From Escherichia coli (lineage in GTDB: Bacteria; Pseudomonadota; Gammaproteobacteria; Enterobacterales; Enterobacteriaceae): DNA of 64,000 nucleotides. Under the pieces are notes generated by a model. It did not search any database. It was not told the origin of the DNA and saw only the letters and a list, made by a program, of their open reading frames with translations. The position numbers and the translations under genes were made by a program. The DNA lies in the NCBI RefSeq assembly GCF_002854065.1, contig NZ_CP024147.1; one strand, written 5' to 3'. The stretch's first letter is position 1. Each line of letters begins with the position of its first letter. This document shows, one piece after another, positions 6,092-60,603 of the stretch.

Positions 6092-6419
6092 TTATGTTGG
6101 CGTTTTCTATTCAGTATAGAAGTCGGAGCGGCTGGGCGAGATGCGGAAGTTCTGGAATGTTTCTTTTTTTGGTGATGGTGAACTGATGGTGCCTGAAGCA
6201 ATTTGGCTACTTTTGCAATGTGACAAGTTATGGCACGGCTGGCTGGTGGCGAAGAATTTTGACGATTGAGGCATGCAGAAAAAACGGGCTCAGCTTCAGT
6301 TGATTAAATGAGGAGTGAGAAGTCCGAAACAGGATTTACTGTATAAATAAACAGCTATTTTGTTGAGGAAGGGTAAGATAACGGCGGGTGCCTGAAGCTT
6401 TCCGGTTTCAGGTTTACTC

Positions 6420-6495
6420 TGAGGTCTGGAAAGATGAAGCCCCAGGAGATATTTCTATCAACCCTGGGGCTGCCACTCCAAACCAGACAATTTGG
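6420..6495 (-). ncRNA. sokE: Putative Sok-type antisense RNA region for copy 1 (position inferred, not resolved)
   Basis: In hok/sok loci the antisense RNA is transcribed opposite the leader and covers the mok/hok translation-initiation region; placed by analogy only. Confidence 0.3.
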
Positions 6496-6531
6496 ATGGT
6501 AGTTCCTTCTTCGCATGGAGGCAATATAAAC

Positions 6532-6684
6532 ATGCTGACGAAATATGCCCTTGTGGCAGTCATAGTGCTGTGTTTGACGGTACTGGGATTTACGCTTCTG
6601 GTCGGAGACTCGCTGTGTGAGTTTACGGTGAAGGAACGTAATATTGAGTTCAGGGCTGTTCTCGCTTACGAACCGAAGAAGTAG
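6532..6684 (+). CDS. hokE: Hok-family type I toxin (50 aa), copy 1; an in-frame upstream ATG at 6496 gives a 12-codon mok-like extension
   Basis: [50 protein letters not shown] is a Hok-family sequence; the ybdK-entD position is where hokE lies in E. coli. Confidence 0.85.
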
Positions 6685-6923
6685 CCGTTGTGCGGGGAGT
6701 AATCCCCGCATATCCGGTTGTCAGGTCAGGATGGTAAGGCACCTGCTTTACACTTTCGCCCGCGGTCAGTGATGGCTGCGGGCGGTTTCGTTTTAAGAGC
6801 AATGATGAGTTTTGCCGACAGAAGTCCGAAACAGGATTCACTGTATAAATAAACAGCTATTTTGCTAAGGAAGGGTAAGATAACGGCGGGTGCCTGAAGC
6901 TTTCCGGTTTCAGGTTAACTCTG

Positions 6924-6998
6924 AGGTTTGGAAAGATGAAGCCCCAGGAGATATTTCTATCAATCCTGGGGCTGCCACTCCGAACCTGAACAACTCGG
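6924..6998 (-). ncRNA. sokE: Putative Sok-type antisense RNA region for copy 2 (position inferred)
   Basis: By analogy with hok/sok architecture; the leader sequence is duplicated along with hok. Confidence 0.3.
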
Positions 6999-7034
6999 AT
7001 GGTAGTCCCTTCTTCGCATGGAGGCAATATAAAC

Positions 7035-7187
7035 ATGCTGACGAAATATGCCCTTGTGGCAGTCATAGTGCTGTGTTTGACGGTGCTGGGATTTACGCTT
7101 CTGGTCGGAGACTCGCTGTGTGAGTTCACCGTAAAGGAACGTAATATTGAGTTTAAGGCTGTTCTCGCTTACGAACCGAAGAAGTAG
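7035..7187 (+). CDS. hokE: Hok-family type I toxin (50 aa), copy 2 (R41K relative to copy 1); in-frame upstream ATG at 6999
   Basis: [50 protein letters not shown]; second unit of the tandem repeat. Confidence 0.85.
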
Positions 7188-7308
7188 CCGTTGTGCGGGG
7201 AGCAATCCCCGCATATCCGGTTGTCAGGTCAGAGTGGTAAGGCACCTGCTTTACACTTTCGCCCGCAGTCAGTGATGGCTGCGGGCGAATCGTACCAGAT
7301 GTTGTCAA

Positions 7309-34232: not shown

Positions 34233-34774
34233 CTGAAGACGCTCTCTGAACGTTACAGGGTGATCAGTGAGATAAGACTGTTAATTATAAAGTAAACACT
34301 GAAAAGCAGAGTGTTTTATTTTTCATTCGCGCTGTGAATAAATAGGTGAAAGTTATAGTAGCTGTCTGAGGTTATATATCAAAAACACTCATTTAGACGG
34401 TCAATGAATCGTGAGAACACCAGATTGTTTAAAGAAGATTTATTATAGGAAATGTAAAGCTTTATTGAAGGTAACGGATGTTCTAGTTTTATCTCTTTTA
34501 AATTAAGAAAGTCACGGTGGGAGTTATAAAGTTCATAGGGGACTATTCCCAGTAAATCTGTAACTGCAATGCTATTAATGATTGTCAGCAAAGAGGAACC
34601 ACGAAATGAAATTTTGCGATTCATAAATCTCTCGTCTATTTCCATTTGAATATCATCAACCCCTGCTGATTTAGATATTAATTGGGTGAACTCTTCTGCC
34701 ATAATTTGTTCATAAGTGCGGTGATGCTGCCAACTTACTGATTTAGTGTATGATGGTGTTTTTGAGGTGCTCCA

Positions 34775-35050
34775 GTGGCTTCTGTTTCTATCAGCTGTCC
34801 CTCCTGTTCAGCTACTGACGGGGTGGTGCGTAACGGCAAAAGCACTGCCGGACATCAGCGCTATCTCTGCTCTCACTGCCGTAAAACATGGCAACTGCAG
34901 TTCACTTACACCGCTTCTCAACCCGGTACGCACCAGAAAATCATTGATATGGCCATGAATGGCGTTGGATGCCGGGCAACCGCCCGCATTATGGGCGTTG
35001 GCCTCAACACGATTTTCCGCCATTTAAAAAACTCAGGCCGCAGTCGGTAA
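34775..35050 (+). CDS. insA: IS1 InsA
   Basis: 91-aa [27 protein letters not shown]... (zinc-finger/HTH protein of IS1). Confidence 0.95.
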
Positions 35051-35472
35051 CCTCGCGCATACAGCCGGGCAGTGACGTCATCGTCTGCGCGGAAATGGAC
35101 GAACAGTGGGGATACGTCGGGGCTAAATCGCGCCAGCGCTGGCTGTTTTACGCGTATGACAGGCTCCGGAAGACGGTTGTTGCGCACGTATTCGGTGAAC
35201 GCACTATGGCGACGCTGGGGCGTCTTATGAGCCTGCTGTCACCCTTTGACGTGGTGATATGGATGACGGATGGCTGGCCGCTGTATGAATCCCGCCTGAA
35301 GGGAAAGCTGCACGTAATCAGCAAGCGATATACGCAGCGAATTGAGCGGCATAACCTGAATCTGAGGCAGCACCTGGCACGGCTGGGACGGAAGTCGCTG
35401 TCGTTCTCAAAATCGGTGGAGCTGCATGACAAAGTCATCGGGCATTATCTGAACATAAAACACTATCAATAA
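34969..35472 (+). CDS. insB: IS1 InsB reading frame (transposase made as InsAB' by -1 frameshift at the aaaaaac motif near 35027..35033)
   Basis: 167-aa ORF ...[21 protein letters not shown]...; the slippery a6c motif lies within the insA/insB overlap. Confidence 0.9.
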
Positions 35473-36268
35473 GTTGGAGTCATTACCCATAAGTGCTATT
35501 GTCAGTAATTCGTGGATGCCTATTACTACAAATTAGAGTATTGCGAATCGTATGCAATGGCATGCAAATGACGGAACGGCTGATCACTGGCATTTGGGTG
35601 ATCACCAGATCGGCTTTGCGGTGAACCAACAGTTCTTCAGCATTCTCTGCTGACATGAGGATATCATGGCACTCAATCTCGACAGAGGAATCTTGTCGTA
35701 GGCAGCGGATCAGCATACTATTATTAGAGCAAGAAATGAGCTGAGGGCCGTGAATAATAAAGTTTTTCTTTAGTTCGGACTTATTGACTATATTAATTGT
35801 TTGTTCAAGGCCTCTGAGATTTTTCTCAAGATGGTGATGCAGATTTAACCCTGTTGTCGTCGGCGCGATACCTTTTCCTGAGCGAATGAATAAAGGGTCA
35901 TTAAATTGCGCACGTAAGCGTTGTAACGACTGGCTCACGGCTGATGGGGTGATATATAGTGATTCAGCAGCTTTGCTAATGCTTAAATGCTGGTAAATAC
36001 ACTCAAATATGACAAGAAGATTTAAGTCGAACTTTTTCAAGTCGTAGAGATTGGTCATACACTACTCCGGTTATATTTTTCTTCCATGATATATTCACTT
36101 AATCAATGTTTTTTTTGCGTATATATTTTTATTGGTTATGTTTTTTTGCTTAACTCAGGATTAAGTTTTTCTAAAATAGCACAGCCACTTAGGGCAGAGC
36201 GAGCAATTCATGCTTTTTTAGGATGGTTGAAAAGCAGGGATATAGTTCAACCATCCATGAATTACCTT

Positions 36269-49123: not shown

Positions 49124-50182
49124 TCATGCGGGGGTCTTTTGACGAGCTGCCGCGTCCTGGCGGGAGTGCTCAAGCAGGTTCTGCAAATAATGCAGCGTGA
49201 CTGCAGGGACCAGCGGCGCGATAGCCGTGAGATCGTTTTTCGCCAGCAGTTGACGTACCCGGGAAGCGGATATCGGCATCTCCTGGTAACGCAGCCGCTC
49301 AATTTCAACCAGTTCGATGGGCGGTGCGGAGATAGTCGGCGTTTCCAGCCAGTAGCGCATATCCTGGTTGTACTGGGCGGTAACGCGACAAAAGGGTTCA
49401 GTACCGACAAAGCGGTGAGTTACACCCAGCGCGGGAGCGAGGTACTGACGGAAAATCTTCAGATCAATTTCGGTGTAACAATGGTTAATGACGCTCTGTT
49501 CTTTAATGAAGTAGCAAGGGAACGTAGCGCGGGAGATGATGTATTCGGAGCCGCGATGCACAGTCAGGCGTGGAATATCGGCGGTGCCTTTTAACACCAG
49601 ATCCAGCCGGTCTTCATAGGGGAAGCGTGAAGAATCTTCTTTGACTAAAAACAGATGCAACCAGTCGCACTGTGCCGCAGCTTGTTGAATCAGATAACGG
49701 TGACCCTTCGTAAAGGGATTGGCGTTCATCACAATGCAGCCAATCTTGTTCCCGGGATGACGAAATTTTTTCAGCGATTCGGCATAGCGTTTCAATCGCG
49801 TGGCGCTGTTTTCCATCAGCACCATCACGCCTGGTACGCTGGTCAACGTGGAAAAACCGCACTGGCGGAACAGCGCCTCGTATTCGGTTTTGGTATAAAT
49901 AAACAGATGCGTGCTGTGCCGCTCATAGGCGAGGTTTATCAGTTCAGTGGCTAATGTCAGCGCCAGTCCTTCACCGCGAACGGATTCACTGATAGCAACG
50001 CATTTAATAATATTTCCGGCAATTCCACCGCACGCGATAAGCTTTTCATCGCGGGTTACGGTAATAAATACTTCGACTGTGGTGTCAACGCTCAAATCAT
50101 TTTCATGCAGGAATTGGGCGATTTTCGCCATTTTTTTATTTTCTGAACGTTTTACGCGGGTGAAAATATCATTGCCGAACAT
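49124..50182 (-). CDS. citC: [Citrate (pro-3S)-lyase] ligase CitC
   Basis: Track ORF 49124..50269; recalled CitC (352 aa) starts MFGNDIFTRVKRSENKKM. Confidence 0.85.
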   Translation of the reverse strand: MFGNDIFTRVKRSENKKMAKIAQFLHENDLSVDTTVEVFITVTRDEKLIACGGIAGNIIKCVAISESVRGEGLALTLATELINLAYERHSTHLFIYTKTEYEALFRQCGFSTLTSVPGVMVLMENSATRLKRYAESLKKFRHPGNKIGCIVMNANPFTKGHRYLIQQAAAQCDWLHLFLVKEDSSRFPYEDRLDLVLKGTADIPRLTVHRGSEYIISRATFPCYFIKEQSVINHCYTEIDLKIFRQYLAPALGVTHRFVGTEPFCRVTAQYNQDMRYWLETPTISAPPIELVEIERLRYQEMPISASRVRQLLAKNDLTAIAPLVPAVTLHYLQNLLEHSRQDAAARQKTPA

Positions 50183-57575: not shown

Positions 57576-58541
57576 TTACTTAACTTCCATCCCTTTCGCC
57601 TGCAAATCGGCGTGGTAAGAAGAGCGGACAAACGGACCGCATGCAGCATGGGTAAAGCCCATCGCCAGCGCTTCGGCTTTCATTTCGTCGAACTCATCCG
57701 GGCTAACGTAACGTTGAACCGGCAGGTGATGGCGGCTTGGCTGCAAATATTGCCCCAGCGTTAACATCGTCACACCATGACGGCGCAGGTCGCGCATTAC
57801 CTCAATAATTTCTTCATTGGTTTCACCCAGTCCCACCATCAGACCAGACTTGGTCGGGATTTCCGGATGTGCTTCTTTAAAGCGTTCCAGCAGCTTCAGC
57901 GACCAGTTGTAATCTGCACCAGGCCGTACCTGACGGTAAATACGCGGTACGTTTTCCAGGTTATGGTTGAACACATCTGGTGGCGTTGCAGTCAGAATAT
58001 CCAGAGCACGATCCATACGACCGCGGAAATCCGGCACCAGAGTTTCAATTTTGATTTGCGGGCTTTTTTCCCGAATGGCAGTAATGCAATCCGCAAAGTG
58101 CTGGGCACCGCCATCGCGCAGGTCATCACGGTCAACGGAGGTGATAACCACATAACGCAGCGCCATATCGGCAATGGTCTGCGCCAGTTTCACTGGCTCA
58201 TTGGCATCAGGAGCTACCGGCCGACCGTGGGCAACGTCACAGAACGGACAACGGCGGGTACAAATAGCGCCGAGGATCATAAACGTTGCTGTGCCGTGGT
58301 TGAAGCATTCCGCCAGGTTAGGGCAGGAGGCTTCCTCGCAGACAGAATGCAGGCCATTTTTGCGCATTGCGGCTTTGATGCCCTGGATACGTGTAGAGTC
58401 CGCTGGAAGCTTGATTTTCATCCATTCCGGCTTGCGCAGCAGGGCTTCGCGCTCTGTTGCCACGTTTTTAACCGGGATAAGGGCCATCTTATCGGCATCG
58501 CGGTATTTAACACCGCGTTCCATCACAATGGGTTTACTCAT
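57576..58541 (-). CDS. lipA: Lipoyl synthase LipA (radical SAM)
   Basis: 321-aa ORF with two cysteine clusters for the [4Fe-4S] centres; matches recalled LipA. Confidence 0.95.
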
Positions 58542-58749: not shown

Positions 58750-59702
58750 TCAAAATGCATTACGGATAACATCTATTACTCCGTGCAGGATGGGATCACG
58801 CAGGCTGAATTTGTTGTAGTGGATAGAGAAATCTATTTGCTCCTCATTTAAGGACGGAAAAGGCAGTTTTTCCAGCGGCCAGCAACGGCTAAACAGGTTA
58901 TAAAAACGGCTGGGAATAATCGCTAACATGTCACTGTTGGCAACCAGTGCAGCGATTGTCAAAATGTTGTAGCTGGTGAAGCTGATCTGCCGGTCCGGAA
59001 ACATCTCTTGAATTCTCTGCCGCAGACCGCTGAAATTTTGTCCTTCCGGTAACAGGAGTACATGTGCAGCGTTGTCGATAGTCTCTCTGTCATCTTCTAA
59101 AGAGAGTAGTGGATTTCCCTCGCGGCAAATTAACACCATATTGTCGGTGAACAGAACATGATGTTGCACCGTACGATTGGTGCAAAACATGTTATCGATG
59201 ATGAGATCGGTTTGAAACTGACTGAGTTGGTTTTCCGCGTCGCTGATGGGAGGGTTGCGCAGTAAAAGCTGCGGATAGTGAGTTTTAATCGCCCGATAAA
59301 TGACAGGAAGGACCAGGGCTCCGACCGAGGGGGTGGTCGCGATAGTTATCGTTCGTTGCTTATCATAGCTTCCTTCGATATCCAGCGCGCCAAGAATGGA
59401 TTCAAGGCCCTGACTGATATACTCATGTAGATGCATCGCAAATGCGGTAGGAGTGACACCCTGGCCTTTGCGAATAAACAATGGGTCAGGGATATAACGC
59501 GCAGTTTCTGTATAGACTGACTGATTGCCGAGGGGGTCAGATTAAGCACTTTCGCTGCATTAACGATCCCTTTATGTACATATACAGCTTCAAAAATAGT
59601 CAGAAGGTTAAGATCAATATTTCGTAAGGTTGTAAATATTTGTGGTTTACCTTCTGACGACTTTCTGCTTAAACAGGGTTCGATTTGATTATTACTATCC
59701 AC
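58750..59702 (-). pseudogene. ybeF: LysR-family regulator YbeF, split into two out-of-frame ORFs (59346..59702 HTH part; 58750..59481 effector part) by an apparent 1-bp deletion near 59478..59485
   Basis: The N-terminal ORF has the LysR HTH (LNLTPSAISQSIQKLRVI) then runs into nonsense; the next frame continues with the conserved PDPLFIRKGQG motif. Restoring one T in the tatatcc tract would give a single ORF of about 317 aa. Confidence 0.7.
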
Positions 59703-59961: not shown

Positions 59962-60603
59962 TTAAGCGGTAATATATTCGAAGTCAGGATTGTTTAGTAG
60001 CGCTAAAATATTTTCCAGTAAACGTGGTGCAATATTATTAGTCGTCGCTTCGGGTTTCCATTGTGATATTTTAGCCATTTCCATTCCGGCATACCCACAA
60101 GGATTAATACGTAAAAATGGTGAAAGATCCATATTGACGTTTAATGCCAGACCGTGGAATGAACAACCGCGTCGAATACGTAAACCCAGTGAGCAAATTT
60201 TCTTTTCCCCAACATAGACACCTGGCGCGTCAGCCCGAGGATGCGCTTCTATACCCAGTTCAGCCAGGGTATTCACCACTGTTTGCTCAAGCAAGGTCAC
60301 CAGTTCACGCACACCGAGTTTACGGCGTTTCAGGTTAAGCAATACATACATCACCTGTTGCCCCGGCCCGTGATAAGTCACCTGCCCACCGCGATCGCTC
60401 TGAATCACCGGAATATCACCCGGCATTAAAATGTGCTCCGCTTTTCCTGCTTGCCCTTGGGTGAATACCGGATAGTGCTCGACCAGCCAGATTTCATCAA
60501 GGGTACTATCATCGCGGGTATCGGTGAATTCATGCATAGCCTGGGAGATTGGCTCGTAAGGCTGAAGACCGAGCTGGCGGACAAGAATTTTATCCTGATA
60601 CAA
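59962..60603 (-). CDS. lipB: Octanoyl-ACP:protein N-octanoyltransferase LipB
   Basis: 213-aa ORF matching recalled LipB. Confidence 0.95.

Follow-up and report, generated by a model that had tools for sequence, protein, structure and literature searches.

Between lipB and lipA, the 64,000-nucleotide stretch of Escherichia coli DNA analyzed here (referred to as the window) carries two overlapping open reading frames on the minus strand where related strains have a single regulatory gene. This raises the question of whether the locus holds a genuine pseudogene, a sequencing error or a functional gene that is read in two frames. The gene found at this position is ybeF, which encodes a LysR regulator of unknown function and is located between lipB and lipA in E. 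coli, Salmonella, Klebsiella and Enterobacter (PMC4398509). In the window, the whole span of the locus (58750..59702, minus strand) comprises 953 nt, compared with 954 nt for the intact CDS, and it matches the CDS annotated as ybeF in strains 100416 and CUWW06 at every base except the missing one. Both neighbors are intact and lie in the same orientation. The upstream one is a 213-aa ORF (59962..60603, minus strand) annotated as lipB in CUWW06 and 100416, and the downstream one is a 321-aa ORF (57576..58541, minus strand) annotated as lipA in the same two genomes, with its start 208 nt past the ybeF stop. A promoter and terminator scan of the locus returned weak consensus matches only, and neither a lipA promoter nor a ybeF terminator could be called with confidence.

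In the ORF listing and its translations, the first frame (ORF1; 59346..59702, minus strand) opens with a GTG codon at the annotated ybeF start and encodes 118 aa, of which the first 70 are native YbeF residues and the remaining 48, up to the stop, are out of frame. The native residues cover the N-terminal extension and the winged HTH (wHTH) helices through the recognition helix (...SAISQSIQKLRVI). The in-frame part ends with ...SIQKLRVI (...LTPSAISQSIQKLRVI), beyond which ORF1 is out of frame. The second frame (ORF2; 58750..59481, minus strand), listed as 243 aa from an in-frame TTG, contains YbeF residues 75-317, comprising the rest of the wing, the linker helix and the LysR substrate-binding domain. 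The two ORFs overlap by 136 nt in different frames, in agreement with a preliminary description of this DNA, which had reported overlapping HTH and effector-domain ORFs. It had also stated that a conserved LysR segment is read in the second frame straight after ...QKLRVI, and direct reading of the sequence bears this out, as ORF2's frame reads IPDPLFIRKGQG... at the junction. Phe71 is the sole YbeF residue that is missing from ORF1 and ORF2 combined.

The NCBIfam equivalog model for YbeF (NF008554.1, YbeF family transcriptional regulator; 317 positions, curated cut-off of 277 bits) was matched by ORF1 over profile positions 1-76 (E=9.5e-38, 129.9 bits) and by ORF2 over positions 75-317 (E=5.8e-136, 452.6 bits), and the two together tile the model. 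Since both ORFs match this equivalog model, the two-ORF pattern does not reflect chance. The restored allele, which is that of the intact gene in strain 100416, scores 613 bits over positions 1-317 of 317 and passes the cut-off, and the location between lipB and lipA, which is conserved in Enterobacteriaceae, also fits membership of the YbeF family. In the intact protein, the Pfam domain HTH_1 occupies residues 31-89 (profile positions 1-59) and LysR_substrate occupies residues 116-316, whereas in the window HTH_1 (PF00126) is found at residues 31-68 of ORF1 only (profile positions 1-38 of 60) and LysR_substrate (PF03466) lies on ORF2 (residues 42-242). The window therefore does not encode the complete winged HTH expected of a functional LTTR. 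Nor does it encode HTH and LysR_substrate on one polypeptide of about 300 aa, as the two domains are in different frames, parted by a 1-bp deletion.

Alignment of the locus to the intact ybeF of 100416 and of O157:H7 TR01 revealed a single gap, at which both intact alleles read ATATTCCC and the window reads ATA-TCCC. The lesion (59491..59493, minus strand) leaves a single T at 59492 in place of the TT of intact alleles, so that CDS nt 211/212 in codon 71 (TTC, Phe) is deleted. At the other 1,061 columns, the window and 100416 show no difference. The proposal that one missing T frameshifts ybeF was exactly right, although the site had been placed about 10 nt away, at about 59478..59485. This is a minor coordinate error, as the tatatcc tract is located at 59496..59490. 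The designation of the site as a homopolymer was overstated for a run consisting of a 2-nt TT. Because the allele has undergone no other change relative to the intact allele of 100416, with no sign of secondary decay, the event appears to be recent.

We then considered whether the deletion is real. If it arose from a sequencing or assembly error, the strain would have an intact ybeF, and one T would have been lost in base-calling or consensus building. In a megablast search with the ybeF locus of the window, none of 5,426 complete RefSeq E. coli genomes contained an identical copy, and the 40 best matches span 1,062 nt versus 1,061 nt in the window. A 68-nt probe bearing the deletion matched 5,004 complete genomes over at least 80% of the probe length; none of these matches reached ≥99% identity, and all fell in the 90-99% bands. 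No complete genome carries the deletion on this sequence background. The lack of the deletion in every complete RefSeq E. coli genome tested is in favor of an error, as is the finding that the window's own genome is outside the searched complete set, in which no 100% match was obtained. The same searches answer another point of the preliminary description, namely whether intact orthologs share the two-frame structure. They do not, as the best 40 alleles have the intact length and none of the 5,004 is identical to the window across the deletion site.

Evidence against an error comes from a second assembly. The NCBI draft GCA_035821435.1 contains the same T deletion on contig JAPQBK010000029.1 (58,456 bp), in which 6,687 nt are 100% identical to the window. 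This contig stops about 70 nt into an IS1 element, at the same citR junction as in the window. Since the window reads through the IS1 where the draft contig ends, it must come from a different assembly. In addition, the draft differs from the window by two SNPs in 17.4 kb, at window positions 50125 (citC codon 20) and 36907 (dsbG codon 37). Because two non-identical genomes share the deletion, it is best explained as inherited within a small clone and not as an assembly artifact. The draft and the window would not be fully independent if the complete genome had been polished with the draft or derived from the same DNA preparation, but the two SNPs argue against this. Moreover, comparison with the nearest genome, CUWW06 (NZ_CP182139.1), over the 64 kb identified 13 SNPs, one 768-bp IS1 insertion and, as the sole 1-bp indel, the one in ybeF. 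With so few indels, the source assembly does not appear to be indel-prone. The lesion affects a run of two nucleotides; alignment to intact alleles shows no indel in longer homopolymers, for example the T7 run at about 59740 upstream of ybeF. An error of sequencing or assembly is thus very unlikely. The preliminary description had left a genuine pseudogene and a sequencing error as two options; the former is favored and the latter is not, given that a genome two SNPs apart carries this deletion too. The ORF is disrupted relative to intact orthologs and the lesion is reproduced in a second data set (GCA_035821435.1), and we conclude with high confidence that the window contains a genuine and recent loss-of-function allele of ybeF that has become fixed in a small clone of E. 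coli.

With one T of the TT in codon 71 lost, translation from the normal GTG start would yield the 118-aa product, in which 70 native residues, ending just past the recognition helix (...PSAISQSIQKLRVI) of the LysR wHTH, precede 48 nonsense residues. The frameshift at this point deprives the product of the native start of its wing (FPDPLFIRKGQGVTPT), its linker helix and its complete effector domain. In LTTRs, the linker helix is the dimerization helix. Judged by the architecture of LTTRs, a fragment devoid of the wing, the linker helix and the effector-binding domain is predicted to be unable to oligomerize, to bind DNA as an LTTR or to respond to a ligand, and we infer that the allele is null. 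The 243-aa frame of ORF2 is probably not expressed, because it has no evident RBS and is positioned inside the translated, out-of-frame ORF1. Direct reading of the upstream sequence found no SD-like sequence ahead of either its TTG (59481) or its ATG (59436). An exact-sequence look-up returned zero records for both the 118-aa and the 243-aa products. The product on record is a 228-aa protein that starts at the ATG (59436) and is present, as an exact match, on about 13-23 public contigs. Gene callers probably drop the overlapping N-terminal ORF, and hence only the 228-aa product has been recorded.

The phenotype expected of the clone would be that of a ybeF deletion, and, as E. coli can dispense with ybeF, the lesion is tolerated. 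In K-12, deletion of ybeF resulted in 67 differentially expressed genes, including a 3.5-fold decrease in lrhA, and in an increase of the FlhDC (flagellar) iModulon, while three YbeF binding sites were detected by ChIP-exo (PMC9068703).

Besides an error, a functional interpretation of the two frames has to be considered, in which programmed -1 ribosomal frameshifting yields full-length YbeF, or each half is translated on its own and the two cooperate. It is consistent with the overlap of the ORFs, which jointly retain all YbeF residues but one. However, the two-frame structure is not conserved, being absent from the 5,004 other genomes and from the best 40 alleles, all of intact length. The junction, read directly as GTT ATA TCC CTG ACC, contains no slippery heptamer of the X XXY YYZ type, and neither potential start of ORF2 is preceded by an SD-like sequence. 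The break also falls inside the wHTH fold. In LTTRs, the DNA-binding domain must be covalently joined to the effector domain via the linker helix, which counts against a split gene. Programmed frameshifting was rejected on account of the missing heptamer and the lack of conservation, and we regard a recoded or split functional gene as extremely improbable. An equally improbable proposal, that ybeF is toggled by slipped-strand mispairing as a reversible phase-variable switch, gains something from a C5 run that varies by +1 and -1 in other lineages, which suggests that short runs in ybeF mutate recurrently, but it was rejected because the lesion is in a TT dinucleotide far shorter than the runs of known contingency loci, the window and the draft, as members of one clone, are both in the same OFF state, and the variant occurs in no complete genome tested.

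The reading of the window allele as a genuine null mutation can be placed among other losses of ybeF in E. coli. In 1,056 of 5,423 complete E. coli genomes (19.5%), ybeF was matched only partially, within nt 1-524; O127:H6 (LT903847.1) is among them. The single example of this class that was examined, strain 4/4 (NZ_CP023826.1; L043 901-1425), is annotated by PGAP as a pseudogene (frameshifted; incomplete; missing C-terminus), and alignment revealed the loss of about 392 internal nt (nt ~525-916) together with two indels. This allele is an old, internally deleted pseudogene. The idea that the approximately 1,056 partial matches represent a divergent effector-domain allele was considered as well, and it is wrong for strain 4/4. 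Further, independent disruptions include a nonsense mutation, Q81* (C241T), in several Logan/ENA contigs, and an additional T near ybeF nt 110 in the complete genome of SCU-482, where PGAP labels the gene as frameshifted. From these alignments and annotations, ybeF is recurrently lost in E. coli, and about a fifth of complete genomes appear to carry a broken copy already. The window allele is a new and young null of an already known kind, and its appearance is an ordinary event. We also observed variation at a C5 run in ybeF nt 167-171 (CCCCC, window ~59532-59536), which, in public assemblies, is shortened by one nucleotide at L007, L010, L013 and L041 and extended by one at L008. The variants occur on two or more allele backgrounds and reflect either a minor hotspot for mutation or assembly errors that recur.

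Compared with intact ybeF (b0629 in K-12; WP_000378030.1 in 100416, CUWW06 and O157:H7 TR01), the window gene occupies the same lipB/lipA locus and, once the frame is restored, has the same architecture of wHTH and LysR_substrate; it differs in lacking one T in codon 71, so that no continuous 317-aa ORF remains. The pseudogenes of SCU-482 and strain 4/4 affect the same gene through the same kind of event (indel or deletion) and are tolerated in natural isolates. However, their lesions (+T and the ~392-nt deletion, respectively) differ from, and are independent of, the T deletion of the window, and the window allele, having no other change, is much younger. For annotation, ybeF should be labeled here as a frameshifted pseudogene instead of a pair of genes, and the missing T should not be "corrected" as if it were a mistake. 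As one more independent null allele, it lends support to YbeF being conditionally dispensable.

A second LysR regulator is also inactivated in this clone. CitR (YbdO), encoded near the cit operon, belongs to the same family as YbeF. The citR/ybdO gene (about 34379-36058, minus strand) is interrupted by a 768-bp IS1 (34720-35487) flanked by a 9-bp target duplication (CATAAGTGC), so that a chimeric N-terminal ORF of 191 aa and a C-terminal ORF of 107 aa remain. CUWW06 lacks this IS1, and the same junction is found in GCA_035821435.1. It is a different gene from ybeF, 23 kb away, and was disrupted by an IS1 insertion instead of a 1-bp deletion. The two lesions are the only structural differences from CUWW06 in the 64 kb. 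CitR is a paralog of YbeF with ~30% identity, and its deletion in K-12 likewise led to lower lrhA and higher FlhDC (PMC9068703). The clone is a natural CitR/YbeF double mutant, which may be used for testing the proposed link from CitR/YbeF through lrhA to FlhDC. It might be suggested, post hoc, that the two paralogous regulators were lost within 24 kb through selection or coordinated relaxation and not through two accidents, a suggestion that we consider rather doubtful; the target of such selection could be the citrate-lyase regulatory module or the shared output on lrhA and FlhDC (motility).

Strain 100416 (NZ_CM128593.1; L024 28538-32518, L025 3331-4028) carries, close to the 3' end of citR, a composite insertion bounded by IS1, which includes extra hypothetical genes, dinQ and arsC. 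Its site is equivalent to window ~34442-34456 and is different from that of the window's IS1. IS1 has therefore struck citR twice, independently, in this small lineage.

Several other differences were observed in the window. Three non-synonymous changes relative to both CUWW06 and 100416 were detected in the cit genes: G148D (within the HSHGGR stretch) and T205A in CitF (window 47455 and 47285, respectively), and E20K in CitC (50125). In the protein collection, the combination of D148 and A205 in CitF has been recorded only as AUJ95256.1/WP_101969356.1, and A205 is present in other assemblies. K20 of CitC is absent from the sister draft GCA_035821435.1. A look-up for further clone members in the gene-position index returned neither the window's CitC (K20) nor its CitF (D148/A205). 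The window's dsbG carries A37, the common E. coli allele; thus, alleles that differ from CUWW06 and 100416 cannot simply be regarded as derived. Finally, a tandem duplication of about 468 bp, with copies ~95% identical (6318-6784 and 6820-7287), corresponds to the pair of hokE toxin loci in the CUWW06 annotation.
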